NCBI RefSeq assembly: GCF_018336915.1
Contig: NZ_CP064927.1
Span: 120,001 to 152,000, forward strand
Source of the DNA: Acaryochloris marina S15
GTDB lineage: Bacteria > Cyanobacteriota > Cyanobacteriia > Thermosynechococcales > Thermosynechococcaceae
Length of the DNA: 32,000 nucleotides
Direction of reading: 5' to 3'
Position 1 is the stretch's first letter. Every line of letters begins with the position of its first letter. Below are positions 6,101 to 32,000 of this stretch, in pieces. The notes beneath the pieces were generated by a model. That model did not search any database and was not told the origin of the DNA. It was given only the letters and a program-made list of their open reading frames with translations. Position numbers and translations under genes: made by a program.

Positions 6101-9061
6101 TATGTCTATGATGATGCCGGGCAGGTGACACAAACACAATTTGCAGATGGGACGAGTGTGTCGGCGACCTATAACTTGCTGGGTCTGCAAACCTCCATTA
6201 CTGACCAAGAGAGCAATACCACCCTCTATCGGTACGACGGTTTAGGTCGCCTCTTAGAAATTGAAGATGCTCTGGCCTCGATTACCCGCTATGACTATGA
6301 CGATGTGGGTCGGCGAACTTCAACGACCAATGCTTTAGACCAAGTCACCCGCTATGACTATGACAAGGTGGGACGCCGCACCAGCATTGAGTTACCCGAA
6401 GGGCAAGAAGCCAGTTATGCCTATAACGCTAACGGCAATTTAGAAACTTATACGGACTTTGCAGGGAAGACTCAAGAATATGACTACGATGCCCTGAATC
6501 AGCTGATCTCCATTGCCTTTGCCAACGACCCCACCCAAGAGTTTACCTACACGGCGACGGGTCTAATCGAGACGATTACGGATGGTCGGGGCGTAACCCA
6601 GTTTGCCTATGATGAGCGGGACCGCCTGATTGCTCGCACGGATCCCAATGGACCCTACATCAGTCCAGGGGGACCGACCATTCAATATACCTATGACGAT
6701 GCCAGTAATCGCACCTCAGTCCAAACCCCCAATGGCACCACCACCTATGGCTTTGATGCTCAAAACCGCTTAAATAGCGTGATTGACCGAGATGGGTTCG
6801 AAACGACTTATCGCTATGACCTGGCTAGTCGGTTGGTGGAGACGGTCCTGCCCAATCAGGTAATTGAGCGTCGCGATTATGACGACTTGAATCGGTTGAC
6901 TCACCTATCCACGGTCAGACGAGATGAGGTGACGGGAGAAGAAACCCTAATCACCAGCTTTGAATACAGCCTCAATAAGATTGGGCACCGTCTGCAAGTA
7001 ACGGAATCGACGGGTCGAGTGGTCAGCTATGAATATGACCAGCTCTATCGTCTGACCAAGGAAACGATCTCTGACCCCAATGATCCCACGAATGATGGGC
7101 GAGTCACAGAGTATGAGTTAGATGCTTTAGGCAATCGACTACGCCGCATTGACTCCCTAGAGGGAGAAACCACCTATACCTATAACCAGAACAATCAGCT
7201 GCTAAGGGAGATAAGACGTCAAGGCGATGTAATTGAACAGGAAACTGTCTATGCCTATGACAACAATGGCAATTTACTGAGCAAGACGGTTAATGATTCA
7301 GAAGTAACCACCTATCGCTGGAATGATGAGAATCGACTGGTTGAGGTGGAACTGCCCAATGGCGACAGTATCAGCTTTGTCTATGACACCGCAGGTATCC
7401 AGGTCTCCCGGACACTGAATGGGGAAACAACGACGTTCATCATCGATAGCAATCGCCCCTATGCCCAGGTGATTGAGTCTTTAGATGATCAGACCCTGCT
7501 GGAATTTAAGACTTTTGGCATTGATCTAATTTCTCAATCGGATGAGAATGGAACGATTTATTTCCATACGGATGGATTAGGCAGTACACGGGCGATTACG
7601 GATGCCAATGGTGAGGTCCAGGACCGATTCAATTACAACGCCTTTGGAGAACTGTTAACGACAGAGAATAACAGTGATGTCGATAACCTATTCGCGGGTG
7701 AGCAGTACGATGCTGAGTTAGGTCTGCAATATCTACGGCAGCGTTTTTACGACCCCAGTACGGGTCGGTTTATCAGCCAGGATGCGTTTGAAGGGTTCTT
7801 GGATGACCCGATTACCCAGAATCGCTTTTTGTATGCCAATGCGAATCCAGTTACCTATACCGACCCTAGTGGATATTTCTCGATCTCGGAGCTAAATGCC
7901 GGAAAGATAATCAGCAATATCCTATCAAAAGGCTCAGCTGCCCTCAGTGCAACCGCTTCCACAGCAGTGAGTCGAACAATTGCGGGCGCTGCAACTGGCA
8001 TCTTTGGTACGGCGCTGGACAAGATTGCTAAAGGCGAAGATATCACCATTCCTGATTTATTATTAGGGGCTGGAGCTGGAGCTAGTTTTGGCTATTTAGC
8101 TCCAGCTATTGCTGCGACCGCTCCAGGTTATGCAATCGCAGGCTTGAGTCTCAACAATGCTAGAGAATCACTGGTAACGCTACATGAAGCTTTGAATGAC
8201 CCCAATGCTTCTGCAATACGAAAAACGGCGGCGTTTGTCCAAGCCTTGGAAAGTTTGTTTGATCTCAAACAAATTGTTACGAGTGGAATCCTATTTGGCC
8301 CCCAGTGTTTTGTTGCTGGAACTCCCATTCTCACACCCACTGGTAAGAAAGCCATTGATGAGCTAGAGCCTGGTGATTGGGTGCTCTCTTGGGATGATGA
8401 AACAGATGAGGTTACTGAGCGACAGGTGACGGAATGGTATCGCCGAGAAGCACCAGCTATTATTGACATCTTTATTGGTACAGAGAAAATCTCATGTACG
8501 CCAGAACATCCCTTCTGGGTTCCGGGCAAAGAATGGGTGTTGGCATCTCAAATTAAGAGGGGGACAGTTTTACAAAATCGTGCTGGAGAGGCAGTAGTAG
8601 TTGATGCTGTTCGTCGTCGCCATGAAATTACTCAAGTTTTCAATGTTGAGATTGATGGGCTGCACACTTATTTTGTTTCTAATCTCGAAATACTGTCGCA
8701 CAATATGTGCCAGAATAGACAACCTTCTCCTGCTGTCCCATATGATGATTATAGTCCTGAAGCAGTAAGTTCAAGGCAAAAACAAGCTCGTGAATACTAT
8801 GGTCAACTAGAAGAAGCTAATAATTCTCCTGCTGGACCTTCTGGGAGGAAAAAGCCAATACCAAAAATTTCAGGTAAAGAAGGATCTAAAGATATACCGT
8901 CATGGTTGAAACAAACAGGAGAGATACCATTTGTTGGTGAATCTGGAAAAGAATTTGCTAAGCGTGTGTTTGAAACTTATCGCCCAGGAGTGGAATACAA
9001 AAATGTGCCTAATTCGGAATTCAATAGAATAAAAAAATGGGCGGATCGAAACTTTAAATAA
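179..9061 (+). CDS. Giant RHS/YD-repeat polymorphic-toxin-type protein, 2960 aa (vWA + SdrD-B-like + cadherin-like repeats + Ig-like pair + RHS shell + Hint + small C-terminal domain)
   Basis: Single uninterrupted 8.9-kb ORF. Motifs read from the translation: MIDAS-like DVSGS...FTDFT...FLSDG (vWA); NNNGVLDPDE...TYTVRQVVPNGY (SdrD-B/Cna-B-like); ~92-aa repeats with YxYQxxAxDPDGDxLTY; dozens of YD repeats (xYxYDxxGN); core end RQRFYDPSTGRFISQDAF...NPVTYTDPSGY; Hint block CFVAGTPILT...HTYFV...LSHN. No Sec signal, PAAR or LXG-type N terminus noticed. The ORF opens directly inside a cadherin-like repeat, so the start and N-terminal completeness are uncertain. Confidence 0.9.
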   Translation: MTTRDGPIITSTPVTQFGLADEVYRYQLTANDPEGDPLVYKLLDAPLGAVIDQETGELLWYPNTSVTAGSTTQFSVQVDDRFGNSDQQTFEVDVVGQLGKIQGVVFSDLNNNGYRDTSLVQGDSPDVVFAIDVSGSTGFRLVDLTTQDISSLDETTASILDLELATTIALSEQLIDQGLGDTAKIGVVLWNTSGQILDMDLAQPGIQLYTTPLADTNNNGIADLREALETVSSGGFTDFTPGLTTAKGVLDSLGGDPNLIFLSDGRGDLDESIVTEINEAGINLTAFGIGAGSSLDQIQKVDPNAIQISNVDELVNIFSGWDPRYSVEPLLENITVYLDHNNNGVLDPDEPYQLTQPDSGNSRLGETRYYYSFENLLPGTYTVRQVVPNGYEETNPSSGSFVDEVTVSGGEVYEHLFGLHPISGPANSNPVFITEAPTTPLQVGEEFIYRALAQDPDADPIRYDLPLAPDGVTIDESGNITWIPQADQVGRFDVILRVRDDQGGTTLQTFALEVESNNQAPTFTSGLDHAQPQVGKAFQYQAKAIDADGDVLTYELVSGPSGVTLDSQTGLLNWTPVSSQLGNRTVQLRALDGQGGEAIQTLDLRVINPLPNQTPTFTSTPRERIRLGNTYFYQVDATDADGDPLTYNLSTAPTGMALQDNILVWTPTADQMGEHQVVLSVDDGQGGVAAQTYTLMVGNQLSNAAPEITSTPNLVTNIEREYQYNLTGSDPDGDLVQWRLVNGPEGVVVDPTSGSLRWQPTVDQLGAHTLIVELSDAYGLSTQQTFEVQVNGANTPPAFLSTPSTRAAQDQAYSYQVIAKDPEQDELTYSLGINPVGMTIDAQSGLIQWTPEASQLGVHDVEVQVRDSQGAVSTQTYRLEVGEAPINQAPTITSRPLFQADLQQPYSYQIEATDPEGGALSYQLLEGPAGITVDAQTGVLTWDAPVVGDHRIVVAAYDVEGLGAAQGYTLRALANELPVIRSTPETTAFVGGEYRYDVQAQDPEGGALTYELDANAQALGVTIDDYGRIFWTPTTDQVGVYPITLTVTDAAGASVEQQFDLTVQTDDVAPEVRLVPSVEPAALGESVSLFASATDNVGVDLLSLTVNGQAVALDANGIYTFTPDAVGDVTAIATARDAAGNTTQTEATFSVLDLTDVDAPEISLPDLSGQVFTAPTEIVGTVNDDNLVYYSLSVAKVGSDDFREIFRGSDPVVDGVLGTFDPSLLENDAYTLRLNAVDAGGNVVTQDEVVTVAGELKLGNFQLSFTDLTIPVTGIPISVTRTYDTLTSNTTDDFGYGWRLEFRDTDLRTSLPKDETFEQLGVRTVGFETDTRVYITLPGGQRQGFTFRPREDNRFNLIAGPTSARLFHPEFVADDGVTSTLTVEDATLVRGAGTDEFFGVNGEAYNPADGGFGGVYTLTTKEEIVYKIDGQSGDLLSVTDTNGNTLTYTDGGIFSDAGPSVLFERNAQGQITRVTDPSGQHITYEYDDLGDLVAVTDREGNTTRFGYDDNRAHYLDEIIDPLGRSGTRSEYNDDGRLSKLIDVNGEALEFIYDPNNSLQEVKDVYGVSTFYEYDQRGNVVSTVDAYGTRVNRDYDEDNNLIRETIISEETGPEGYTTEIVYTDEGQVLSGTNVLNQEFRNTYDSDGNLLTTTNALGQTVTYTYDRYGNPTSVTDAAQRRSEYEVDARGNIVSILNVEQNRSHFEYDVNGNLTRSVDVLGNETLFTYDQNGNRTSRTQTVTKADGSTEEITTTWTYNSNNQLLSLTNAEGAIFSYEYNGSGYLAAFVDALGNRTEYLYDDKDQLVETIYADDTPDDNSDNLRSITLYDRGGRTRAAIDPAGRVTHFVYDLLGRPTEVIYPQGSETLEQLLGAIAPGQTLESVDWADILYPDDPPAYLSDNPRRQWEYFPDGKVKAEIDERGHRVEYRYDELGRLIETILPDETPDTLADNPRLSAEYDAIGQLSQTTDPLGQTTRYVYDDAGQVTQTQFADGTSVSATYNLLGLQTSITDQESNTTLYRYDGLGRLLEIEDALASITRYDYDDVGRRTSTTNALDQVTRYDYDKVGRRTSIELPEGQEASYAYNANGNLETYTDFAGKTQEYDYDALNQLISIAFANDPTQEFTYTATGLIETITDGRGVTQFAYDERDRLIARTDPNGPYISPGGPTIQYTYDDASNRTSVQTPNGTTTYGFDAQNRLNSVIDRDGFETTYRYDLASRLVETVLPNQVIERRDYDDLNRLTHLSTVRRDEVTGEETLITSFEYSLNKIGHRLQVTESTGRVVSYEYDQLYRLTKETISDPNDPTNDGRVTEYELDALGNRLRRIDSLEGETTYTYNQNNQLLREIRRQGDVIEQETVYAYDNNGNLLSKTVNDSEVTTYRWNDENRLVEVELPNGDSISFVYDTAGIQVSRTLNGETTTFIIDSNRPYAQVIESLDDQTLLEFKTFGIDLISQSDENGTIYFHTDGLGSTRAITDANGEVQDRFNYNAFGELLTTENNSDVDNLFAGEQYDAELGLQYLRQRFYDPSTGRFISQDAFEGFLDDPITQNRFLYANANPVTYTDPSGYFSISELNAGKIISNILSKGSAALSATASTAVSRTIAGAATGIFGTALDKIAKGEDITIPDLLLGAGAGASFGYLAPAIAATAPGYAIAGLSLNNARESLVTLHEALNDPNASAIRKTAAFVQALESLFDLKQIVTSGILFGPQCFVAGTPILTPTGKKAIDELEPGDWVLSWDDETDEVTERQVTEWYRREAPAIIDIFIGTEKISCTPEHPFWVPGKEWVLASQIKRGTVLQNRAGEAVVVDAVRRRHEITQVFNVEIDGLHTYFVSNLEILSHNMCQNRQPSPAVPYDDYSPEAVSSRQKQAREYYGQLEEANNSPAGPSGRKKPIPKISGKEGSKDIPSWLKQTGEIPFVGESGKEFAKRVFETYRPGVEYKNVPNSEFNRIKKWADRNFK
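554..1132 (+). other. von Willebrand factor A-like domain within the giant ORF (aa ~126-318)
   Basis: VVFAIDVSGSTG (DxSxS MIDAS motif at nt 572-586), later GGFTDFTPGL (Thr) and LIFLSDGRGD (Asp), in the usual vWA order and spacing. Confidence 0.7.
1460..3370 (+). repeat. Tandem array of 7 cadherin-like/putative-Ig (He_PIG-type) coding repeats, period ~92 aa (~276 nt); an 8th copy is at nt 179-463
   Basis: Repeat starts read from the protein: NSNPVFITEAP, NQAPTFTSGL, NQTPTFTSTP, NAAPEITSTP, NTPPAFLSTP, NQAPTITSRP, NELPVIRSTP. Each is followed by xYxYQxxAxDPDGDxLTYxL ... GxxxWTPxxxQxGxxxV ... D.QGG...Q.F.L.V. Confidence 0.8.
3962..7876 (+). other. RHS/YD-repeat shell and RHS-associated core (aa ~1262-2566)
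   Basis: Starts with LSFTDLTIPVTGIPISVTRTYDT...FGYGWRLEF. Continuous YD repeats follow (e.g. ITYEYDDLGDLVAVTDREGNTTRFGYDD). Ends with LRQRFYDPSTGRFISQDAF...NRFLYANANPVTYTDPSGY (DPxG-type tip boundary at nt 7862-7876). Confidence 0.85.
7877..8305 (+). other. Gly/Ala/Ser-rich hydrophobic segment with glycine-zipper-like strings between RHS core end and Hint domain
   Basis: AGAATGIFGTAL and LLLGAGAGASFGYLAPAIAATAPGYAIAGL read from the translation. No family assignment possible by eye. Confidence 0.45.
8306..8704 (+). other. Hint (Hedgehog/intein-like) domain, pre-toxin HINT / bacterial intein-like type (aa 2710-2842)
   Basis: Begins CFVAGTPILTP (block A Cys), contains TPEHPFWV (block B-like) and HTYFV, ends LEILSHN. 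The residue after HN is Met, not Cys/Ser/Thr, so it is not a splicing intein. Confidence 0.85.
8705..9058 (+). other. C-terminal variable domain (candidate toxin), 117 aa: P/S/K-rich linker + ~65-aa basic block, family unassigned
   Basis: Position is distal to the RHS core and Hint domain. Sequence GKEGSKDIPSWLKQTGEIPFVGESGKEFAKRVFETYRPGVEYKNVPNSEFNRIKKWADRNFK. Noticeably more AT-rich than the RHS body. Confidence 0.5.
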
Positions 9062-9178
9062 GTATATTTTTGGTAATGAATGACACAGGCAGAACATGAA
9101 GAATTATTAGCTGAATAATTATTTAGATAAAAAACTTTATGCAAGCCGAAGCATTTCCCGATGAATATATAAAGTATA

Positions 9179-9291
9179 AAATTATAGCGGTTCCCGAATG
9201 AATGAAATACAATAAAGAGCCCTAGCCCCCTTGTAATATTTCATTGCAGTTACATCGCTATACCTCCCTTGAGAAAGAACCGCTATAATTT
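9179..9291. repeat. Palindromic element in the toxin/immunity gap: 15-bp perfect inverted repeat enclosing a second nested inverted repeat
   Basis: AAATTATAGCGGTTC (9179-9193) is the exact reverse complement of GAACCGCTATAATTT (9277-9291). Inner pair AATGAAATA (9201-9209) / TATTTCATT (9237-9245). Confidence 0.7.
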
Positions 9292-9348
9292 CAGAAAAAA
9301 ATGATTTATCTCTTTAATAAAATTTATAATTAGCTTTTAGCATTGATT

Positions 9349-9927
9349 ATGAAAAATTCAAAAAGTATTATTTTACCTAGGAATTGTGAATCCATTTGGT
9401 TAATTGGATTTCGATTTGACCCAGATATTGCAAAGCCAGACTTTTTAACTCTTATTTTTTCTGGAGATGAAGACTTACCCTTAACACTTAATAATTATAT
9501 TTTGTTTTTTAGAGATATTAAATTAATAGAAATTGAAGCCGATCCTTCAAGTGAAATACAAAACCTTCAACTACCACAAGAAATTAATTTAGTTGTTGAT
9601 ATCGCAGAGATATCATATATACTTTTCAATGAAGATATAGATGAATCAATAGCAATTCTAGATTCATTAAACATAATATTTGATTTGGTTAAAGCTACAG
9701 GAATATCATTCAAGCCTATAGATAAAAAAAATTTGTATGCATTGGCCGATCACCTTACATTCAGCAAAGATTTATCTAGTTTCTTTTGTAATATCGATAT
9801 AACGCGAGAAAATATTCATGATGCTATTCTCTGGTGCATTGGAGCAATTTGCTCTAAGTCCAAACTATTAGAAAATAAAATTATCTTGAATACAATAGGA
9901 AGCGTAACAAACCTACCTGCTAGCTAA
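9349..9927 (+). CDS. Hypothetical acidic cytoplasmic protein, candidate cognate immunity protein of the RHS C-terminal domain
   Basis: First ORF downstream of the toxin gene on the same strand. Extremely AT-rich (about 25% G+C in a hand-counted 60-nt sample). No signal peptide or TM segment. ATG at 9349 preferred over the TTG at 9343 used by the ORF track. No recognisable motif. Confidence 0.55.
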   Translation: MKNSKSIILPRNCESIWLIGFRFDPDIAKPDFLTLIFSGDEDLPLTLNNYILFFRDIKLIEIEADPSSEIQNLQLPQEINLVVDIAEISYILFNEDIDESIAILDSLNIIFDLVKATGISFKPIDKKNLYALADHLTFSKDLSSFFCNIDITRENIHDAILWCIGAICSKSKLLENKIILNTIGSVTNLPAS

Positions 9928-9938
9928 GTATTTATGAT

Positions 9939-10172
9939 ATGCTCCAAGCATCCGTTCGGTCAGGGAGCATCGTCTTGGAGTACGAGTTACGCATTGTTGT
10001 TGAGAAGGTTGCCATCAGTACTCAAGAAGTGGTTAAGCGCAACACGATTAAAGTCTACGATATTAAAGCACCTGAATCGAAATTGTCAGGGCTGATTGTC
10101 CAGAATTGAGAAATCGACACCGTCCTGATAGGCTGAGCCTTGTCCCTGAGCCATACTCTGTCTGTATTTAAT
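9939..10172 (+). CDS. Unlisted 77-codon ORF (MLQASVRSGSIVLEYELRIVVEKVAISTQEVVKRNTIKVYDIKAPESKIVRADCPEL...), hypothetical
   Basis: Hand translation from the ATG at 9939 runs without a stop to the TAA at 10170-10172, which overlaps the IS6 transposase ATG. It is absent from the supplied ORF track. No motif recognised. Confidence 0.25.
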
Positions 10173-10527: not shown

Positions 10528-12281
10528 GGCCTTCCAATAGTAACGGTTCCTGTTGGCGAATGTATTTGTGAGCATTAATACTTAGCGATCTGTCCAAATA
10601 CCCCCTTGGAAAATGAGGAATTGCAAAGGCCCATTTTTCTGTTACTTCATCGACCTAGCATGAACTCAACGCTGTTCATAGAGCAAGGAGCACCCTGCTA
10701 TGTCTATGCACCCTCACCCCATTCAGCCAGTTCCCGAAAACACAGCCACAGTCGCTCATCTAGCATTTCCTAAAGGCAATCGATACATCACGCTACGCGA
10801 TGAAATTGGCACCTTCTTTACTGATGAAGACTTCAGGGACTTGTTTTCAGTTTATGGTCAATCTGCGATCAGTCCCTGGCAACTTGCCCTCATCTGTATC
10901 CTGCAATTTCTAGAAGATCTGACAGATCGACAAGCAGCAGATGCCGTTCGTAGCCGCATTGATTGGAAATACTTACTAGGACTGGAGTTGACCGACCCAG
11001 GATTTGACTATTCCGTATTATCTGAATTTCGAGCACGGTTGATTGAAGGGCAAGCAGAACAACGCTTGTTGGATTTACTCCTATCAGAATGCAAAACCCG
11101 AGGCTGGCTGAAGCAACGAGGTAAACAACGAACTGATTCAACGCATGTATTAGCTGCCACACGCACCCTCAACCGTTTAGAGTGTGTGGGTGAAACCCTA
11201 AGAGCAGCACTGAATAGTATTGCTACGGTTGCGCCAGATTGGCTACAAGCGTGGGTTCCCCTTGAATGGTTTGACCGTTATCGTCGTTCAATTGAGGAAT
11301 ATCGCTTGCCGAAGGGAATTACTCCTCGTCAAGAATATGCGGCAGTCATTGGTGCAGATGGGATGCATCTACTAGAGAGAGTTTGGGACGATTCAGCCCC
11401 TTCAAAGTTGAGAGAAATACCGACTGTTGAGGTCCTGCGCCGTACTTGGGTCAACCAATACCAGATTGTTGAAGGACAAGTCCAGTTGAGAGCAGCCAAG
11501 AATATTCCGCCTGCAGGAGAGCGAATTGATTCTCCCTATGATCCAGATGCCCGGTTTGGGAATAAACGTTCTACGACCTGGACAGGCTATAAAGTTCATT
11601 GGACTGAAACTTGTGATGATGAGCAGGTGCATTTGATTACTCATGTCATGACAACCCATGGCCATCAAACCGATCTTGGACAGACCCCACAAGTGCATAT
11701 GGCTCTTAAGGCAAAAGGTTTGCTACCGGCTGAGCATATGGTTGATACAGCTTATGTCGATTCTCCTTTGATGCTGAATAGTCCAAGAGATTATGGAATT
11801 GAACTGGTCGGCCCTATGCGTCCAGTTGCCAATTGGCAATCTCATGATCCTGAGGCCTATGACTTGAAGCGTTTTCAGATCAACTGGGAAACTCAAACCG
11901 TAACATGTCCACAAGGGAAAACGAGTAAGAGTTGGGGACCGGGAAAAGACACAGCAGGACGCCCAATATTTCATGTCAAGTTCTCATCAAAAGACTGTAG
12001 TCCTTGTGCTCAAAGATCTCTGTGCACTCGATGTAAGCGTTCACCTCGTCATTTAATGGTGCGTCCCAAGGAGGAACATGAGGCGATAGAAGCTATTCGT
12101 CAGGAGCAGAAGACTCCAGAATGGCAAGAACGCTATGACAGACGTGCAGGCATAGAAGGGACTCTGGCAACAGGTATCCAAGTTTTTGGGTTGAGACAAA
12201 CTCGATATATTGGCCTTGCCAAAACTCATTTGCAGCATGTTTTCTCGACCGTAGCCATGAATATACGTCGTCTCGTTTCAT
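10528..12281 (+). mobile_element. IS1182-family-like insertion sequence, inserted into the IS6 transposase gene and itself truncated at its right end by the Tn3-family IR (left boundary approximate)
   Basis: The IS6 reading frame loses similarity at ~10528. The transposase ORF starts at 10700 after an AAGGAG site. The right end is replaced at 12282 by GGGGTATGAC... Confidence 0.65.
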
Positions 12282-12337
12282 GGGGTATGACAACGATTCC
12301 TAGGTTAGAGGGCCATAAGGCTGAAATCTATATCTGA
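10700..12337 (+). CDS. IS1182-family (IS5-like, InsH-N/DUF772 + DDE) transposase; last ~18 codons are read-through into the Tn3-family IR
   Basis: SPWQLALICILQFLEDLTDRQAADAVRSRIDWKYLLGLELTDPGFDYSVLSEFRARL (InsH-N-type), Cys-rich TCPQGK...CSPCAQRSLCTRC, C-terminal RYDRRAGIEGTLATGIQVFGLRQTRYIGLAKTHLQHVFSTVAMNIRRL. The sequence ...LVSW|GMTTIPRLEGHKAEIYI* is encoded by the transposon IR from nt 12282. Confidence 0.8.
   Translation: MSMHPHPIQPVPENTATVAHLAFPKGNRYITLRDEIGTFFTDEDFRDLFSVYGQSAISPWQLALICILQFLEDLTDRQAADAVRSRIDWKYLLGLELTDPGFDYSVLSEFRARLIEGQAEQRLLDLLLSECKTRGWLKQRGKQRTDSTHVLAATRTLNRLECVGETLRAALNSIATVAPDWLQAWVPLEWFDRYRRSIEEYRLPKGITPRQEYAAVIGADGMHLLERVWDDSAPSKLREIPTVEVLRRTWVNQYQIVEGQVQLRAAKNIPPAGERIDSPYDPDARFGNKRSTTWTGYKVHWTETCDDEQVHLITHVMTTHGHQTDLGQTPQVHMALKAKGLLPAEHMVDTAYVDSPLMLNSPRDYGIELVGPMRPVANWQSHDPEAYDLKRFQINWETQTVTCPQGKTSKSWGPGKDTAGRPIFHVKFSSKDCSPCAQRSLCTRCKRSPRHLMVRPKEEHEAIEAIRQEQKTPEWQERYDRRAGIEGTLATGIQVFGLRQTRYIGLAKTHLQHVFSTVAMNIRRLVSWGMTTIPRLEGHKAEIYI
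12282..12319 (+). repeat. Tn3-family terminal inverted repeat (tnpA-proximal end)
   Basis: GGGGTATGACAACGATTCCTAGGTTAGAGGGCCATAAG. Same GGGG...TAAG, 38-bp format as classical Tn3 ends. Confidence 0.85.
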
Positions 12338-12451
12338 TAGTTATTCCAGGCGACGTTTGAATTTAATTCTGTGAGATGGAAGTCCATTTCGGTACTGATG
12401 TCCTATTCTTAAACTCTCTTGCCAACTGATCAACATAGTTTTAACCACCGA

Positions 12452-15400
12452 CTACACCAATATGGGTTCAGCCTCTTGTTCCTTTAGAGCAATCGGAATA
12501 TCAAAATTGATGGGTGGCGGATTACGCTGTTGATCTAAGAAGAATAGTCCGAACCGATTGAGATGGTCCATCCAATAAGGGCTCAGTAACGCCAATACCT
12601 CTGCATCAAACATGCGGCCATTTTGGGCTTCCTCATTGAGAATGCGACTCATCTCTGAAACGTTGTAGAAAATGAGACAGTTGGCCACCAGGTGATTGTA
12701 TTTGATGCGCTTTCGGAGTTCAGCTCGGTTATTGCTAGAGAGGACTTGGTTTTCACCGCCAAAGGCGAGCCACTTAATAAAGCGATTGAATGACTCACAC
12801 TTGTTGGTTTCAGCATGGATCGTTTCCTGCATTTGAGGGTCGTTGATGTACTGCAGTAAGAAAATGGTTCTCAAGACACCTCCAAGCTCATGAAATGCTT
12901 GAAATAGCTTATTCTTGCGGCTATTGGTTCCCAACTTTCTCAACAGGGTAGAGGCTTGAACTTTCCCTTCTTTGATGGACAACGCTACCCGTAACATATC
13001 CGGTAAGTGGGTTTCAATTAGATCCCAGTCCGTCACCTCGGTGAACAAGCTGTCCAAATGCTTGTAGCGGGTCCCCCGAGATGGCCGATAAAACGCTAAG
13101 CTCTGCCAACCTCGAATGCGAGGCATCAGGGTAATGCCCAATAGAAACGCCAAGGCAAACACCGTACAGCTTTGGGATTGAGTATCGCCATGAATCGTGT
13201 CCGGTTGAATTTCAGACGTATTTTTGAGCAACCCATCAAGGATGTAAATGGCTTCCCACACCCCGCAAGGAATAAAGTGACTGAACAGGGCAATGTAGGT
13301 GTCGCTGATGTGGTAGTAGCCAATGCCGCCATAGCCACCATAGCGGATGTGATATTCCGCCAATAGATTCTGCTCATACATATCCCACTTGGTTCCATCC
13401 ACTGAAGCCTGTTTGCCGGACCCCCAAACCTTGGGAAGCGAAAAGCGGTTATAGGAATCGATGATCTCAGTAATGGCCTGCTGGATGTTCTCTTCACTTA
13501 TGTGGCGATGGTGAATCCAGGAGATTTGACGACGGTTAGTTCCGGGTAACGACCGTTCCAATTGGCTGGTGCCAATGTTACAGCCGAAACAGAATGTGGT
13601 GGCGATATATCGTTCAACTGGATCTGTGATCTTGGCGTCAAAGCCAGATAGGGGACCGAAGCATTGGGTCCAGTTGAGCCATTTCTCGGTGTCACACAGC
13701 ACATCCAGAATAGAGACGGGTTTGATCTTCCGTTCAATGAGTGCCTTCACTTCCGCCAATCCTTCGGGTAATTGACGTTGGCGTTTATGGATTACCAGAC
13801 GGTCTTTTTTAAAGCTCAAGTGAGCATTGGTGGGGAAGGCCTGATCTGCCGTCTTGGCCGCTTCTCGTAACCGGTGCTTCATCTCTTGAACAAAGGCCTT
13901 ACCCTCCGTTGGCAGATTGATCATCTTGCCATACTCTTCAGCTGAGTCCTGGTATTCTTCCCAAGAAATCAACTGGCTGTAATAGTCCCCAAATTCGTTA
14001 CTGCCCGGAATATACAAATCCCCCGACTGCAATTCCAGACTGATATGGGAGAACACACACAACTCAAAGTAAAGGCGATGAACTTTGGTGGGTGGAGTCT
14101 GTTGTGAATCCATGATCAACGACCGCCACTTGTTAGGCACCCAACTGAGATCCAGCATCGGGACAACCGCTTCATCAGGGCTGCCCTGATTCACGATCTG
14201 GGTCATCGGCACCCATTTACTGCGTTTGGACCGATGGGCTTTGATAAATTCAACCGCGTTGATTAAAGACTGGTCCTGGGTGCTGGAGCACAAGGGGAGT
14301 TGCTCTAGGAGTCGGAAGAATACGGCTCGATGAGCACGATAGAAACGGGTCAAAAAAGAGAAGTAGTTGTTGCCCACATAGGCTAAATGCTCTTGGCAAT
14401 CGTCAATGAGCTGTTGTGGATCATTCCCAATCACAATTTTCATCGACTTGAAGCGTGTGGTGATCCGGCCTTCAGAGTCATAGGCCAACAGAACATGCAA
14501 GAAGATGTCGATGAGTTCATCCGTGCGAGCTTGCGTCCTGCGACGATAGTCACTCAGGGCTTCTGCTCCCTTGTGATGGAGCTGGCGGACCCGTTTGATA
14601 AACATCTCCGCTAAATCATCCAGTGTGTTGGCATATTGAGACGATAGCAAGGCCAGGGCTAAGGTATAGCGTTTGGCGTCGCTCATTTCTTTCATGCGAG
14701 CAGCATCTAAAGACTGGGCCTCTGCGGCGAGGGCCTTGATCTTGACGGCGGGAATATCCTGCAAACCGGAATTTGGGATCTGCAGATCAGCCAACCATTC
14801 CAACCGTTCAATCCACTCTTGCAGCCGCGAGAGCAAGGGTTTGCCGGGGTCTTCCTTCAAGCGGTTCCATAACGATTTCTCTACTAGCGAAGCCGACACA
14901 AATAACCGATTCAGCTTCACCCGCTCCGTCCGCTTTAAGGTCTGACTGACTTGTTCATACTGCTTTGTAGCCACCGCTTTTCGGACCTCTCGTGCAGCTT
15001 GGTCTAGGGTATAAAAAGCTGGGAGCTCAAATCGATGGCGGACCAATTCTTCAATGGCCACATTGATCAAGTCTGGGAGTTCATGTTTGGTCAATGCCGC
15101 CTTTTCCATCGATTCATGGACAACGGCACTGGCTTGGGGGCCATACTTGGTAATTTGTAAATAGCTGCGAATCACCCGCAAATGTCGTTGATGGGCTTTA
15201 GAACGATCATAAGTTGCCAGATCGGGTTGGAAACCGCGTAGGCCAGCTAAGGTGGCGATGTGACGTACCGCAGTAGTTGGTGCATCACTGGTCTTGATGG
15301 CATAGCCTAAGCGTTGGTAAGTTTTCAGGGACACCAAAAACCCCAATTGAGTTTGAGCACTTCGGGTGAGGTGCTTTGCTAGGGCTAATTCCTCTTGGGT

Positions 15401-15481
15401 TGGGGTGTAGATGGCTGAGAGATCTTCATTGGAGGGGTTCCGCTTTAAGCGTGGATAAGCAGTCTCATGTACACTGGCCAC
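12452..15481 (-). CDS. tnpA: Tn3-family transposase TnpA (~1009 aa)
   Basis: Length and N terminus MASVHETAYPRLK... (DUF4158-type) plus a large C-terminal DDE region. Start assigned to the GTG at 15481 (codon 44 of the 1052-aa track ORF), preceded by AAGGAGA 9 nt upstream. The longer ORF would overlap the upstream gene out of frame. Confidence 0.9.
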   Translation of the reverse strand: MASVHETAYPRLKRNPSNEDLSAIYTPTQEELALAKHLTRSAQTQLGFLVSLKTYQRLGYAIKTSDAPTTAVRHIATLAGLRGFQPDLATYDRSKAHQRHLRVIRSYLQITKYGPQASAVVHESMEKAALTKHELPDLINVAIEELVRHRFELPAFYTLDQAAREVRKAVATKQYEQVSQTLKRTERVKLNRLFVSASLVEKSLWNRLKEDPGKPLLSRLQEWIERLEWLADLQIPNSGLQDIPAVKIKALAAEAQSLDAARMKEMSDAKRYTLALALLSSQYANTLDDLAEMFIKRVRQLHHKGAEALSDYRRRTQARTDELIDIFLHVLLAYDSEGRITTRFKSMKIVIGNDPQQLIDDCQEHLAYVGNNYFSFLTRFYRAHRAVFFRLLEQLPLCSSTQDQSLINAVEFIKAHRSKRSKWVPMTQIVNQGSPDEAVVPMLDLSWVPNKWRSLIMDSQQTPPTKVHRLYFELCVFSHISLELQSGDLYIPGSNEFGDYYSQLISWEEYQDSAEEYGKMINLPTEGKAFVQEMKHRLREAAKTADQAFPTNAHLSFKKDRLVIHKRQRQLPEGLAEVKALIERKIKPVSILDVLCDTEKWLNWTQCFGPLSGFDAKITDPVERYIATTFCFGCNIGTSQLERSLPGTNRRQISWIHHRHISEENIQQAITEIIDSYNRFSLPKVWGSGKQASVDGTKWDMYEQNLLAEYHIRYGGYGGIGYYHISDTYIALFSHFIPCGVWEAIYILDGLLKNTSEIQPDTIHGDTQSQSCTVFALAFLLGITLMPRIRGWQSLAFYRPSRGTRYKHLDSLFTEVTDWDLIETHLPDMLRVALSIKEGKVQASTLLRKLGTNSRKNKLFQAFHELGGVLRTIFLLQYINDPQMQETIHAETNKCESFNRFIKWLAFGGENQVLSSNNRAELRKRIKYNHLVANCLIFYNVSEMSRILNEEAQNGRMFDAEVLALLSPYWMDHLNRFGLFFLDQQRNPPPINFDIPIALKEQEAEPILV

Positions 15482-15486
15482 TGCCT

Positions 15487-15960
15487 CTACTCTCCTTTCG
15501 TCTGTAGCTGGGTTTGATAAGGGGTTCCGCAATAGGGGCAAAAACGATGCTTGAGAGAGGTGATGGGTTCTTGGCAGCTGATACAGCGATCTTGTAGCCG
15601 AGTACCACAAGCAAAACAGTGTTTAGATCTGATATCCATCCACAGGGGTTCAGGCGCACTGCCGGCGCGCCAACACTGGGGGCAAAACTTCAAAGTTTGC
15701 GTGGCTTGGATGGCTCGGCCTCTGCTAATGGAATCCAAGTAATCTGGAGGGATTTGTAGGGCACATGCTAAACCCTGACGTGTTTTGTGATTGAGGGAGT
15801 GGGTTTTACCGCGCTCCAGCTTACCCAAACTTTGGGCGTGGATATTGGCCTTAAGGGCGACTTCCTTCTGGGTGAGACCGAGTCTGACTCGCAGGCGGCG
15901 AAGATACTCAGCCAAGGATTCATCAGGATGGGGGAGGGCATCAGATTCTAAAGGTTGCAT
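15487..15960 (-). CDS. XRE-type helix-turn-helix protein with two C-terminal zinc ribbons (157 aa), transposon-encoded, translationally coupled to tnpA
   Basis: LAEYLRRLRVRLGLTQKEVALKANIHAQSLGKLERGKTHS (HTH_XRE), then CPQC-x17-CFAC and CISC-x11-CPYC. Its stop TAG (15487-15489) lies 5 nt from the tnpA GTG, and the tnpA RBS is inside its last codons. Start set at MQPLE (15960) because the longer track ORF overlaps the divergent recombinase gene. Confidence 0.75.
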   Translation of the reverse strand: MQPLESDALPHPDESLAEYLRRLRVRLGLTQKEVALKANIHAQSLGKLERGKTHSLNHKTRQGLACALQIPPDYLDSISRGRAIQATQTLKFCPQCWRAGSAPEPLWMDIRSKHCFACGTRLQDRCISCQEPITSLKHRFCPYCGTPYQTQLQTKGE

Positions 15961-16040
15961 GGATTTATCACTTAATATTCCTTCTCCAGAGGTATAGTGC
16001 ATGAGGCGAAGTGAGTCTTTAGATTTAAGCAAAGCTCTAG

Positions 16041-16934
16041 ATGAATCAGCCTTTAGCCACCGTGGCGACCCAGTTTTTAGATCGCCCCCATCTGGCCCCG
16101 AGTACAACCCGTTCCTATGAACTGACCCTGATGCCGTTATTGAAGCAATATGGCAGCTGGTCAGTGGAATTATTAGATGCTGAGATCCTGTCAGACTATC
16201 TCAATAGCCTGACGCACCTGTCTTACACCACTCACCACCGGCATCAAGCTACCCTCAATGCCTTGCTCAACTTTGCTGTTCGCCAGAGGTATATCCGCAG
16301 CAATCCCATTGCCCAGTTAGAGCATCGTTCACCGGATAGAGCTAAGGGAGAACATCTAAGTGATCAGCCCATTCGATTCTTGAAACCAGAGCAATTGACC
16401 ACCCTGTATCAAGCTGTTTATAACGATGCGCGTTTGTATGCACTGGTGAAGCTATTGCATCACAGTGGGGCCCGCATTTCAGAAATTTTGGCCTTGGATT
16501 TGGCAGAAGTCGATCTAGAGCAACGACAATTTCAGGTCGTGGGTAAAGGCAACAAAACCCGTTGGTGCTTTTATAGCGAAGATGCAGCTGCAGCCTTGCA
16601 GAAATACATTGAGTTCTATCGCCATACGCCCTCGCCGGCATTATTCACAGCCCAAAAGACCCCCACAAGTTCGGTGACACGTATGAGTTACCGAACAGCC
16701 CATCATCACTGGCATCAATCGATTCAAAGCTATCAACATCTTCAGGGAGTGAGGTTGCACGATCTGCGCCATACCTTTGCGACAGAGCGAGTGGGACTAA
16801 TGGGGCTTGAGGAACTCAGAGCCTTAATGGGACACCAACATATCCAGACAACCCTTCGATATCAGACAGTCACATCCGAACAAGCAAAAGGGGCTGCTCA
16901 GCGAGCGTTTCAACGTTTAGCAAATACAGTCTAA
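16041..16934 (+). CDS. Tyrosine recombinase (phage-integrase/XerC-D-like), probable cointegrate resolvase of the transposon
   Basis: Catalytic signature in order: GARISEILAL (Arg), KGNKTR (Lys), LHDLRHTFAT (His-x-x-Arg), LMGHQHIQTTLRY (His, Tyr). Divergent from the HTH gene, inside the IRs. Confidence 0.9.
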   Translation: MNQPLATVATQFLDRPHLAPSTTRSYELTLMPLLKQYGSWSVELLDAEILSDYLNSLTHLSYTTHHRHQATLNALLNFAVRQRYIRSNPIAQLEHRSPDRAKGEHLSDQPIRFLKPEQLTTLYQAVYNDARLYALVKLLHHSGARISEILALDLAEVDLEQRQFQVVGKGNKTRWCFYSEDAAAALQKYIEFYRHTPSPALFTAQKTPTSSVTRMSYRTAHHHWHQSIQSYQHLQGVRLHDLRHTFATERVGLMGLEELRALMGHQHIQTTLRYQTVTSEQAKGAAQRAFQRLANTV

Positions 16935-17135
16935 TAAGATGCTTTCAAACTAAGGATATTGGTAGCTCGATAACTACTACCTTGCAGGTAAAAATGGAGA
17001 GATCTCAGAATATAAGAATTACTCTGCAATCAAAGAATGAGTTTAAAAACGAGGCTAAGACAATGAAAATGACTTCCATTTCACGAGATTAAATTCAATC
17101 GTCGCCTGGAATAACTATCAGATATAGATTTCAGC

Positions 17136-17173
17136 CTTATGGTCCTCTAACCTAGGAATCGTTGTCATACCCC
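17136..17173 (-). repeat. Tn3-family terminal inverted repeat (recombinase-proximal end)
   Basis: The reverse complement reads GGGGTATGACAACGATTCCTAGGTTAGAGGACCATAAG (one mismatch to the other end). Extended similarity continues to ~17071, versus ~12384 on the left. Confidence 0.85.
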
Positions 17174-17650
17174 GTGTTGGCTAATATCCGAGGAGTGAAA
17201 GAACCATGGGCGGTGATTACAGATGAATCACCCACGCTACAGACCTTGTGGCAATACGCTTTGAGGTTTCGGGTCGAAGAATTATTTCTCGATAGTAAGT
17301 CTGGAGTGTTTGAGCTAGAAGAGTCGAAAATTCGCTGTGCTGATGCATTAGAGAGGCTTTATCTGGTTGCTGCTGTGGCACTGCTATTCAGCACGACTCA
17401 AGGAATGGCTGTTCACATTAAAGGGCTGCGCCAACAGGTTGATCCACATTGGCGGCGAGGCATTAGTTATCTCAAAATTGGATTACGGTGGCTCAAGGGG
17501 GTAGTCCATAAAGGACGGGAGTTGTTGATGCCAGTCCCCTTGCTCTGCCATGATCCACAACCGTGTTTTGCGTCTAAAAAAGCTCAAAAGAAACACTACA
17601 ACAAAATCTGGTTCTCTCGCATCCGCTCTTTACAGTGCAAGGCTTTATGA
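17174..17650 (+). pseudogene. IS4-family (DDE_Tnp_1) transposase, C-terminal fragment truncated at the Tn3-family IR
   Basis: ...EPWAVITDESPTLQTLWQYALRFRVEELFLDSKSGVFELEES... (the catalytic Glu region typical of IS4-type enzymes). The track start at 17162 lies inside the transposon IR, so the N-terminal ~250 aa are missing. Confidence 0.7.
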
Positions 17651-17972
17651 GCAGGGGAAGGCGAAGATCTGTCAGGCAGTCAGGGTCTTTGGTCTTCTTG
17701 AGTCGCTAGAGTCTATTCAGAAGGTTTTGTCTGCCCTGACTGCTTTGTATCCAGAAAGCCTAAGCTATGATGATTAACCTAGTACACTCCCTAGCCGCCC
17801 AGGTAGCTGTTGATGGCTTTACCTTTGATGTTATCTGCGATTTTAAGTCTGTTGGTATCTTTGTTCTGGATGGGTGTGGGGCTTTCCTATTTCCAACGAG
17901 AGAGCTGCTCAATATAGGCTGGGAGATAGCTCTGTTCCTGATAGTGGCAAGACTTTATATTCTCCTCTGCCC

Positions 17973-19894: not shown

Positions 19895-20704
19895 CTAAGC
19901 AGACTCAGCATGTTTCTCCAGTTTTTTCATGATTTTGTTGAGGATCAGTCGGATAGCTTCATGACTCAAACCAATCTGTTGGCCGATCGCTCTCATCGAC
20001 TTGGGCTGATCATCCTCCAGGCCATATCTTTGGCTGAGTACAAATCGTTCCCGTTCATCTAGATTCGCCATTACCTGAGACAGTTCCTCGTCAAGTTGTA
20101 GAGATTCCATGTAAAGCGTCGGTTGATCATCTCCAGCTAGTAGATCGAGGAGCGTATCTTTTTGTTGTTGGCCGACAAGCTGATCAAGGGACGATACCTT
20201 TTGGAATAATTGCAGGGTACGACTAATAGTTTTCGGCTTGATATCGGTGGCTTCCGATAATTCTGATAGTGATGGTTTTCTACCAAGTGTTTGATTGAGT
20301 TCTCTGTAGTGCTTCTTGATTTTGTTGGCCTTATCCCAATGATTGTGAGGTAGGTAGATGGGACGTGATTTTGCTCGGACAGCAGCCGTAACCCCTTGTC
20401 GAATCCACCAGTAGGCATAGGTGCTGAAACGACAGCCTTGGGCAAGGTCAAATTTATCAACTGCGGTACTCAATCCAATGCTGCCTTCTTGAATCAAGTC
20501 CATCAAAGGTAAGCCCCGGTTCTGATGTTTCTTGGCAATGGAGACAACCAAGCGCAGGTTGCACTCGATCATCCTTTGCTTAGCTCGGAGGCTTCCCGCT
20601 TTAGCTTGTCTGGCAAGCTCAATTTCTTCTTCATGGGATAGGAGGGGATAACGGCCCATTTCCTGGAGGTATAAATGAAGACTGTCATTGTTTGTAGCCA
20701 TCAT
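19895..20704 (-). CDS. Sigma-70 family RNA polymerase sigma factor (RpoD-like, regions 1.2-4, no region 1.1), copy 1, 269 aa
   Basis: LYLQEMGRYPLLSHEEEIELARQ (1.2), NLRLVVSIAKKHQNRGLPLMDLIQEGSIGL...FSTYAYWWIRQG (2.1-2.4), SMRAIGQQIGLSHEAIRLILNKIMKKL (4.2). Start set at ATGATGGCT (20704), which matches copy 2. Confidence 0.9.
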   Translation of the reverse strand: MMATNNDSLHLYLQEMGRYPLLSHEEEIELARQAKAGSLRAKQRMIECNLRLVVSIAKKHQNRGLPLMDLIQEGSIGLSTAVDKFDLAQGCRFSTYAYWWIRQGVTAAVRAKSRPIYLPHNHWDKANKIKKHYRELNQTLGRKPSLSELSEATDIKPKTISRTLQLFQKVSSLDQLVGQQQKDTLLDLLAGDDQPTLYMESLQLDEELSQVMANLDERERFVLSQRYGLEDDQPKSMRAIGQQIGLSHEAIRLILNKIMKKLEKHAESA

Positions 20705-20917
20705 TGAACCTTGCAAACATCATGGGTAGAGGAATACACCGAAATACTATCAATGGGGCCAGAATTTTTTATTTCTTAAGAAAATCGAAGAATGATTGAC
20801 AAGTTTCTCAGAGTTCGGGAGTATTGCTGAAAATAGTTCAGTAGTCTCACTCAGGCTACTCTGCCACTCATTTCAGACTATAGAAACATCCAATAGCTCA
20901 ACTGTTCCCTTTGATCG

Positions 20918-31949: not shown

Positions 31950-32000
31950 TGAACCTGGTGAACATCACTGGTAGAGAATTACCCTGAATAGCTTGATAGG

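Follow-up and report, generated by a model that had tools for sequence, protein, structure and literature searches.

A portable tyrosine recombinase/zinc-ribbon gene cassette in a Tn3-family transposon of Acaryochloris marina S15, and its proposed role in cointegrate resolution

Introduction

How would a Tn3-family transposon resolve its cointegrates when its only genes, besides the transposase gene, code for a tyrosine recombinase and a small zinc-ribbon protein? The question is raised by a 4.9-kb element residing at positions 12282–17173 of a stretch of 32,000 nucleotides (nt) from the cyanobacterium Acaryochloris marina S15 (contig NZ_CP064927.1, positions 120,001 to 152,000). The whole stretch is called the window, and all coordinates are window positions, unless a locus is named. 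Transposases of the Tn3 family (TnpA) bind the terminal repeats of their element, and transposition by copy-and-paste gives a cointegrate. Three types of Tn3 resolvases are named in the searchable literature, TnpR, TnpI and the TnpS+TnpT pair.

A sequence-only reading of the window had described the element as a compact Tn3-family transposon made by tnpA, a helix-turn-helix (HTH)/zinc-ribbon gene and a divergent tyrosine recombinase gene, with a tyrosine-recombinase module in place of a serine resolvase. The description is accurate. The open reading frames (ORFs) and the Pfam and NCBIfam matches agree on the three genes, and no serine resolvase, TnpS or TnpT was found in the element by inspection of the ORF list, Pfam searches and direct comparisons. 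The anatomy of the element is clear, its catalytic residues are intact, and the family relationships of its proteins are established.

The divergent genes, called the pair hereafter, and the ~80-nt spacer which separates them probably make up a self-contained cointegrate-resolution and control cassette of a Tn3-family transposon. The cassette, of which no description was found in the searchable literature, would be, on the best reading of its function, a fourth type of cointegrate-resolution and regulation module. The element at 12282–17173 is an intact replicative Tn3-family transposon, and is probably active.

The gene pair in cyanobacterial genomes

Relatives of the HTH/zinc-ribbon protein, hereafter the partner, were searched by a pattern scan of one genome per species. 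The scan retrieved 263 encoding loci, 80 of which were kept and listed (L numbers). Nearly all of the listed loci are cyanobacterial. The partner gene was also found by tblastn on 56 cyanobacterial plasmids; the cassette was searched for in viral contigs, and was found in none. Of the kept loci, 78 have room for the recombinase gene, and in 77 of these it is divergent and adjacent to the partner gene; the two genes are thus strictly linked. The sole locus with room upstream where no recombinase gene flanks the partner gene is L013, in Acaryochloris sp. IP29b_bin.137. Tn3 tnpA genes, when present, directly follow either the partner gene (34 loci) or the recombinase gene (11 loci), at distances of 16–206 nt.

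The divergence of the recombinase correlates with that of the partner (rho 0.43) more than the divergence of either protein correlates with that of TnpA (rho 0.22 and 0.14). Two loci from metagenome-assembled genomes of Synechococcus (L014 and L016) encode recombinases 48% and 42% identical to that of the window next to a partner of ordinary similarity (62%), and may reflect reassortment inside the pair.

Movement of the cassette between transposon backbones

Transposases associated with the cassette are all genuine Tn3-type enzymes, and are distributed in at least six deep branches of a neighbor-joining (NJ) tree, beside Tn3, TnAs1, the TnXax1-like element described below, and others. Across 595 pairs of loci, recombinases have a median identity of 62% and partners of 54%, against 28% for TnpAs. 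When L067 is compared to L057, L047, L077 and L068, recombinases are 92–95% and partners 93–97% identical, TnpAs are just 20–23% identical, and the terminal inverted repeats (IRs) are unrelated. DNA similarity between L067 (4646–6083) and L057 (223–1660) extends over 1438 nt, exactly from stop codon to stop codon, and the same limits were found in L068, L047 and L039. No motif was identified at the cassette borders in the L067/L057 comparison, and no inverted or direct repeats resembling attachment sites flank them. The pair is a portable 1.43-kb cassette, exchanged as a unit between unrelated replicative transposons. The distinctive feature of the window element is this two-gene cassette, found on many transposase lineages, and not a transposase subgroup.

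The cassette resides also next to Tn7-like genes. In L040, L046, L053 and L066 the pair lies immediately after the small tniQ gene of a set made by tnsB (rve and Mu-transposase C domains), tniB/tnsC and tniQ. The L026 contig starts inside tniQ, and features a partial tniQ only beside the pair. In L022 a TnsAB-TnsC-TniQ set precedes the pair. In L040 and L046, the tnsA position upstream of tnsB contains no co-oriented ORF reaching 100 amino acids (aa), and no Cas12k was found in the loci whose neighbouring ORFs were scanned. Tn7-like elements lacking TnsA are expected to form cointegrates. Serine or tyrosine resolvases have been noted or predicted in TnsA-less Tn7-like clades (Benler et al. 2021).

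Since the TnsB/TnsC/TniQ elements carry a TniQ of their own, the partner is not their target selector. It was considered that such elements may behave as 'res hunters' inserted beside the cassette. This is unlikely, as the cassette abuts the end of tniQ and not a transposon end, and is further disfavoured by the overlap of ORFs in L040, where the tniQ gene (174 aa) and the 3' end of the partner gene share 25 nt. L040, from Leptolyngbya sp. BL-A-14, also contains two tandem TniB/TnsC-like genes (6962–8631 of the locus), 45% identical to each other.

The tyrosine recombinase

The recombinase gene (16041–16934, + strand) codes for a Xer/TnpI-like tyrosine site-specific recombinase of 297 aa (Phage_integrase, E 1e-22), which is the proposed cointegrate resolvase. 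The protein matches XerD (1a0p) at E 1.8e-14, and residues R145, K169, H240, R243, H265 and Y274 correspond to the catalytic residues of XerD. Across 121 homologues, conservation of the R-K-H-R-H-Y hexad is 98% or higher. Scores obtained with the XerA, XerC and XerD models of NCBIfam are well below their cut-offs. About 1000 clusters of homologues were retrieved at E <= 1e-5, the closest 120 being all at least 60% identical to the window protein.

Two known resolvases were evaluated as possible orthologues, with sequences from pWW0, two Xanthomonas plasmids and a B. thuringiensis plasmid, and TnpS was rejected. The recombinase and Tn4430 TnpI, from a B. thuringiensis plasmid, are 28% identical over 149 aa of the catalytic domain (E 4e-13), but the likeness is at the superfamily level only, and no better than that to XerD. 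BLASTP E values are 0.065 with TnpS of Tn4651 (pWW0) and 0.46 with TnpS of X. citri pCFBP2530-87, and alignments to the two proteins are either restricted to the region of the H-x-x-R...Y motif or missing. The TnpS/TnpT-like divergent layout described in the sequence-only reading is right, but the recombinase is Xer/TnpI-like instead of TnpS-like.

The HTH/zinc-ribbon partner

The partner gene (15487–15960, − strand) starts at the ATG at 15960 and codes for 157 aa, and not for the 206 aa of the raw ORF, as indicated by homologues and by Logan gene calls. An XRE-type HTH (HTH_3, E 1.3e-9), similar to that of 434 Cro, is followed by a double zinc ribbon (DZR, E 3.9e-12) in which four CxxC pairs, for a total of eight cysteines, are invariant in 99 homologues. 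A profile search run exhaustively over 1.84 billion representatives retrieved 38 clusters with E < 1e-30; past this limit generic multi-HTH proteins dominate, and the search is uninformative on the TniQ link discussed below. Two tandem partner genes are found in L050 (2064–3069).

Kinship with TnpT was rejected. The hhalign probability is 0.1%, and TnpT is a KfrA_N-type protein of 330–350 aa, while the partner is made by HTH_3 and DZR domains. The supposition made from the sequence, that the accessory protein is of another kind than TnpT, is borne out.

Likeness to another protein, TniQ, was found in four independent comparisons, one of them being the sub-threshold Pfam match detailed further below. 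A profile search of the Protein Data Bank with the partner retrieved TniQ of ShCAST, a CRISPR-associated transposon (CAST), over residues 9–133 (7oxd, E 1e-4). Alignment by hhalign to four small TniQs from neighbouring loci, all of which pass the Pfam TniQ cut-off themselves, gave probabilities of 85–92% and E values of 6e-6 to 5.8e-7 over 141 collinear columns. The model of the partner predicted by AlphaFold (AF2; predicted local distance difference test score, 80.6) has ShCAST TniQ (8bd5_Q and 7oxd) as top Foldseek matches, the only ones covering the full length of the protein. The minimal TniQ of type V-K CAST elements (ShTniQ; 7oxd, 8bd5, 8ea3), which is thus the best full-length match in both profile and fold, is of the same size as the partner, features in the same order an N-terminal HTH and two cysteine-rich zinc modules, and is found in the same host phylum. 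In contrast, identity is about 19–21%, the packing of the domains differs, and the HTH of the window protein is of the canonical XRE type. No TnsC partner or Cas12k accompanies the window protein. Genes coding for a TnsC/TniB ATPase or a TnsB/TniA transposase are not found in the window element, and a separate TniQ is present where TnsB/TnsC lie nearby. The resemblance of the partner to the minimal TniQ of cyanobacterial Tn7-like/CAST elements is moderate, not decisive.

The divergent spacer

The region between the start codons of the partner and recombinase genes (15961–16040) measures 80 nt, and is a candidate res. It carries the putative promoters of all three genes. Spacers measure 79–85 nt in 62 of 78 loci, and their sequence is hardly conserved across the family. 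The spacer is the best conserved non-coding stretch (96%) when the element is compared to the A. marina copies described below. The crossover site was searched by measuring the information content of 62 spacers, by scanning for inverted repeats, promoters and terminators, and by footprinting with relatives 74–95% identical. Two blocks are retained among the latter, CAGAGGTATAGTGCAT (15988–16003), which includes a −10-like TATAGT facing the recombinase gene, and GAGTCTTTAGAT (16013–16024).

Dyads resembling a crossover core are found in other spacers, namely in L079 (16-nt arms separated by 9 nt), in L016 (16-nt arms separated by 8 nt), which has the clearest one, and in L054, where the sequence GTAAAsGCTAG occurs in three copies. 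The motif CCTTTAG, considered as a possible binding site, is placed symmetrically at the start of both genes (15948–15954 and 16050–16056); it is not conserved in other lineages, and may merely code for Pro-Leu in both proteins. A res site is accordingly proposed as putative, in or around the spacer.

The transposase

The tnpA gene (12452–15481, − strand) codes for a Tn3-family DDE transposase of 1009 aa. The protein matches DDE_Tnp_Tn3 over the full 389-position profile (E 2.6e-143) and DUF4158 in Pfam, and the transpos_Tn3 equivalog of NCBIfam with 659 bits, the cut-off being 500. Comparison to homologues and Logan gene calls indicate that the most likely start is the GTG at 15481, and not position 15610 of the raw ORF list; an independent gene caller predicted the same 1009-aa TnpA in identical Logan contigs. 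The GTG is located 5 nt past the stop codon of the partner gene, and the ribosome-binding sequence AGGAG is found 10 nt upstream; partner gene and tnpA are therefore organised as an operon. The residues of the DDE triad, found in the motifs SVDGT, HGDTQ and NKCES (DG, DT, GE), align with those of Tn4430 TnpA (7qd4), whose catalytic triad is D679/D751/E881.

TnpA is 44.2% identical to the transposase of TnXax1 (pXAC64) and 36.4% to that of Tn4651 (pWW0), which are 36.0% identical to each other. Identity to the transposases of Tn3, TnAs1, Tn4653, Tn4430 and IS1071 is 20–25%. By this measure the backbone of the window element is to be placed in the Tn4651 subgroup. Accordingly, the nearest non-cyanobacterial transposases retrieved by tblastn from all PLSDB plasmids, 43–44% identical, are encoded by Xanthomonas and Paraburkholderia plasmids. 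In an NJ tree drawn without bootstrap, TnpA is sister to a P. fungorum TnpA and the transposase of the TnXax1-like element of pCFBP2530-87, an element 85% identical to TnXax1.

The terminal inverted repeats

The element is bordered by 38-bp termini of the sequence GGGGTATGACAACGATTCCTAGGTTAGAGG(G/A)CCATAAG, located at 12282–12319 (+ strand) and 17136–17173 (− strand), which match at 37 of 38 positions. The GGGGTATGACAACGATTCCTAGGTTAGAGG terminus pattern is found twice in the window and never in 100 shuffled sequences. Terminal IRs of at least ~38 bp which start with GGGG and feature an inner TAAG are a hallmark of the Tn3 family, and both signatures are found here.

Similarity extends further inside. 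In ungapped end-to-end comparisons 1 mismatch is found in 38 nt, 2 in 80, 6 in 103, 8 in 109, and 17 in 120, and similarity fades past ~110 nt from the tips. A figure of about 6 mismatches in 103 bp, followed by decay, had been given from visual inspection of the sequence, and is exact. By blastn the two ends are 94.5% identical over 109 nt, and a repeat search of the window gave arms of 112 nt (12279–12390 and 17065–17176) with 92% identity. The IRs are set at 12282–12390, on the tnpA side, and at 17065–17173, on the recombinase side. An additional block, TT(C/T)TTAAACTC, is common to both ends and located 125–135 nt from each tip; it corresponds to TTCTTAAACTC at 12406–12416 in the tnpA-proximal end, and to 17039–17049 in the opposite one.

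IRs of relatives align in the conserved outer blocks GGGGTATGrCmmCGA and CATA(A)GGCTGAAAGC, and more distant relatives feature IRs of their own, measuring 110–139 nt. In one clade (L047, L054, L063, L068, L076) an inner block, AAAAGTACTAACTAACAGAC, is strongly conserved ~95–120 nt from both tips, and is kept at both ends though the IR sequence in between has diverged. The long repeat would therefore be bipartite and functional, and AAAAGTACTAACTAACAGAC looks like a possible second protein-binding site.

IRs of the window element and of its A. marina copies are ~71% identical, and the two IRs of each element are ~90% identical to each other. Genes of the same elements are 87–100% identical per 100 nt; conservation of the coding sequence is lowest (69–79%) in the N-terminal, IR-binding part of TnpA. 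Such a pattern is what a transposase co-evolving with its own ends looks like.

Long IRs in combination with the divergent layout had been regarded as unusual. This does not hold. TnXax1, the closest named relative and a member of the Tn4651 subgroup, has 92-bp IRs, and the TnXax1 authors described long IRs in other family members too; the long repeat is thus a family trait, and not a novelty. Long terminal repeats (110 bp) are found also in IS1071, which differs in having no resolution genes and a TnpA ~20% identical to the window protein over the C-terminal half only.

Copies and insertion sites

A megablast search of PLSDB retrieved no identical element bearing a name. Copies 89% identical reside in A. 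marina MBIC11017, on plasmid pREB4, where annotation is generic, and on the chromosome; they lie in different surroundings, and carry the same long repeats. This, and the 110–139-nt IRs of distant relatives, settle a doubt raised with the first description, as the extended similarity is transposon sequence internal to the element and not part of the flanking IS1182-like DNA. In the pREB4 copy tnpA is interrupted, and hence inactivated, by an IS1-family insertion (L001, 5180–6009); a perfect 5-bp target duplication is kept. The exact recombinase sequence of the window is found only on Logan contigs of 4.6–4.7 kb interrupted at the IRs, a hallmark of collapsed repeats.

Perfect 5-bp duplications, as are expected in the Tn3 family, flank two of 28 complete relatives (AATAC in L002, which is the pREB4 copy, and AATCA in L067). 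Four of the five positions match in three more; about 0.4 elements with at least 4 matching positions are expected by chance. The insertion sites of complete elements have no sequence in common.

Both flanks of the window element are made by insertion sequence (IS) fragments. The left one (10700–12281) contains the 3' portion of a transposase gene of the IS1182 family, which reads into the IR. The 511 nt of the right one (17174–17684) are the end of an IS4-like element, and match at 99.6% identity copies found on plasmids of Acaryochloris sp. 'Moss Beach' (pMB05 and others), which suggests that the window comes from a close relative of that strain; the junction falls 696 nt inside the transposase gene of the IS4-like element. 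The missing halves of both ISs were searched for in the window, and are absent.

Relationships with known systems

TnXax1 and Tn4651, which encode the transposases closest to TnpA, share with the window element long IRs and a divergent recombinase/helper pair, with a presumed site in between, one gene of the pair being directly followed by tnpA. In contrast, their recombinase is TnpS, and the window enzyme is related to neither TnpS beyond the catalytic motif; their helper is the 330–350-aa TnpT, and not a 157-aa protein made by an HTH and two zinc ribbons; their spacer measures ~180–190 nt, and not 80 nt; and tnpA follows the recombinase gene, and not the helper gene as in the window.

A known element features the same three-gene set. 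This is ISNpu13/TnNpu13, a named entry of ISfinder/TnCentral, which spans 4,823 bp on plasmid pNPUN04 of Nostoc punctiforme PCC 73102 (L107, 11072–15894). RefSeq reports there a zinc-ribbon protein, a divergent tyrosine recombinase and a 'Tn3-like element ISNpu13 family transposase', all enclosed between 55-bp IRs. As the window element, ISNpu13/TnNpu13 is compact, has no serine resolvase, and features a short (77 nt) spacer; recombinases are 58% and partners 46% identical. The two elements differ in the length of the IRs and in gene order, tnpA being downstream of the recombinase gene in ISNpu13/TnNpu13, and their TnpAs, just 24% identical, belong to different clades, that of TnNpu13 including L059, L071 and L020. 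TnNpu13 has been placed in the Tn4651 subgroup and its resolvase scored as 'R', as is done for TnpR elements (Lima-Mendez et al. 2020, Table S1, the only table found to list it); the cassette is therefore not recognised as a separate resolvase type in that table. Identity of ISNpu13 to TnXax1 has been quoted at 43% (Ferreira et al. 2015). This is at odds with the 24% identity measured here between the pNPUN04 and TnXax1 transposases.

The view that the window element represents an undescribed subgroup must be modified. A named transposon carrying the same gene set was found, and in a formal sense this disposes of the claim; the difference in gene order, the distance between the TnpAs and the uncharacterised state of the cassette preserve part of it. 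Elements of this three-gene kind are catalogued but uncharacterised, and the window element is a new member. Tn3 transposases located beside recombinase genes had been noticed in two cyanobacteria in a 2016 survey of heterocyst 'interruption elements', and were read as excision systems.

Tn4430 and Tn5401 (TnpI, IRS site) share with the window element a Xer-like tyrosine recombinase of ~285–300 aa as the sole catalytic resolvase candidate. In Tn4430, in contrast, tnpI and tnpA are colinear and no partner protein is present, IRs measure 38 bp, and TnpA is 21% identical to that of the window; in the latter the recombinase gene is divergent, and an extra gene is found. In Tn5053/Tn402-type elements, which feature a TniA-TniB-TniQ-res-TniR array, res-tniR occupies the position that the cassette has after tniQ in L040, L046, L053 and L066. 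Formation of cointegrates is expected for both Tn5053-type and TnsA-less Tn7-like elements, as for the window element. The resolvase of these elements is, in contrast, a serine recombinase (or, in Benler et al., an unspecified tyrosine one), for which no TniQ-like partner has been described, and TnsB/TnsC are missing in the window element.

Proposed function of the cassette

The cassette would work as follows. TnpA would bind both long terminal repeats, and a cointegrate would be formed by copy-and-paste. The recombinase would promote crossing over between two directly repeated sites located in or around the 80-nt spacer, and donor and target would part again, each carrying a single copy of the element. 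The HTH/zinc-ribbon protein may bind the spacer region and contribute to architecture or specificity, as TnpT does in Tn4651; it may also repress the divergent promoters. These would drive tnpA as well, a gene always located directly downstream of one gene of the pair. TnpR at res in Tn3, and TnpT at rst in Tn4651, both shape the recombination complex and repress promoters. A role in resolution and control is suggested by the recombinase being intact, the DNA-binding partner inseparable from it and the spacer constrained in length, and by the association of the cassette solely with two unrelated families of cointegrate-forming transposases.

Several data weigh against this reading or parts of it. 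Thirty of the 80 loci have no transposase within reach; many of them are short contigs, six feature TnsB/TnsC/TniQ, and some look like remnants. The window spacer has no clear 11–14-bp dyad comparable to those of some relatives in inverted-repeat scans, and no single motif can be assigned as the crossover core of the window copy, lineage-specific dyads and conserved blocks being the only signals. Recombinases of the TnpI type act without a partner, so that the zinc-ribbon protein need not join recombination. The Pfam TniQ model (PF06527) matches residues 59–165 of the raw 206-aa ORF, corresponding to residues 10–116 of the 157-aa protein, with 19.7 bits (E 1.4e-3), under the cut-off of 27. The template modelling (TM) score of the partner to ShCAST TniQ in Foldseek is just 0.36–0.40, and each half of the partner gives alone a weak hhalign signal to TniQ; for these reasons the likeness is rated as moderate. 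A target duplication is missing from the window copy, whose 5-bp flanks read TTCAT and GTGTT, and which, sitting between fragments of two different ISs, is not a simple intact insertion. Adjacent deletions and inversions, as recombination between copies, are common with replicative transposons, and events of either kind likely explain the window flanks.

A more specific form of the proposal makes the cassette a fourth class of resolution system, in which a genuine TniQ-family protein would have been recruited as DNA-binding and architectural subunit of a Xer-like tyrosine resolvase. The cassette, moving as a 1.43-kb unit, would be the natural resolvase of Tn3-family and TnsA-less Tn7-like (CAST-related) cyanobacterial transposons. 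This form is tentative, and somewhat doubtful.

It is rather improbable that the recombinase resolves cointegrates alone, as TnpI does, at a site upstream of its own gene, the HTH/zinc-ribbon protein being a mere repressor of tnpA and of the recombinase gene. Such a division of labour would suit a recombinase which resembles TnpI (E 4e-13) and XerD more than it does TnpS, a partner the N-terminal half of which is a standard 434 Cro/cI-type HTH and whose gene heads the tnpA operon in 34 loci, and a spacer with a conserved −10-like TATAGT. It fails, however, to explain why the partner gene stays with the recombinase gene and not with tnpA, which lies on the other side in 11 loci, and why the pair is found in TnsB/TnsC/TniQ elements, where there is no Tn3 tnpA to regulate. 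The exchange of the pair as one unit, and the higher correlation of its members with each other than with TnpA, are similarly at variance with it, and two conserved zinc ribbons would be superfluous in a plain repressor.

TniQ proteins select targets in Tn7, Tn5053 and CAST elements, and the resemblance to minimal TniQ in profile searches, hhalign and fold could make of the partner a true TniQ-type target selector or adaptor, which would steer the transposase, or the recombinase acting as an integrase. This is very unlikely, since TniQ acts via a TnsC/TniB ATPase and Tn3-family elements have none, a canonical small TniQ already accompanies the partner in L040, L046, L053 and L066, the insertion sites of complete elements share no sequence, and the partner is linked to the recombinase and not to the transposase. 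Hardly credible is the last alternative, that the pair serves integration/excision or inversion in its own right, for instance as a small integrative element or a DNA invertase switch, and is carried in transposons as mere cargo: pairs with no transposase in reach (L014, L024, L035, L049), the unexplained route by which the cassette moves between backbones and the reading given in the 2016 survey speak for it, but the cassette is the sole content besides tnpA of compact 4.7–4.9-kb elements and hence part of their core, no attachment-like repeats are found at its flanks and no copies on viral contigs, and it co-occurs with two unrelated cointegrate-forming transposase families.

Other features of the window

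Two additional sets of sequences were noticed outside the transposon. A protein of 2960 aa made by RHS repeats, and featuring immunoglobulin-like repeats and a PT-HINT pretoxin domain, is encoded at 179–9061. The C-terminal tip of the protein and the next ORF (9343–9927, no Pfam match) reside in an AT-rich stretch (8500–10000) with a GC content of 0.31–0.35, compared to ~0.50 upstream, and have the usual look of a swapped polymorphic-toxin tip followed by its immunity gene. Two group-2-like sigma-70 genes, located at 19896–20735 and 31141–31979 (− strand), have DNA sequences 86% identical over 840 nt; lying 11 kb apart, they constitute a dispersed direct repeat. No match was obtained in the window with Rfam or tRNA scans.

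Implications

The interest lies less in the window copy than in the cassette, which is abundant, has a TniQ-like helper, and is exchanged cleanly between backbones of the Tn3 family and Tn7-like ones. Clean swapping between unrelated backbones makes the cassette a good case for the reassortment of transposon modules. If it is indeed a fourth system, it would be among the commonest resolution systems, yet one still uncharacterised and scored as 'R' in the table which lists TnNpu13. The cassette also bears on how cointegrate-forming Tn7-like and type V-K CAST elements are resolved in nature. Should the proposed recruitment of TniQ be true, TniQ target selectors and resolvase helpers would be linked in evolution, and two small genes plus a site of ~80 bp would provide a compact natural tool for resolving the cointegrates of type V-K CAST elements.

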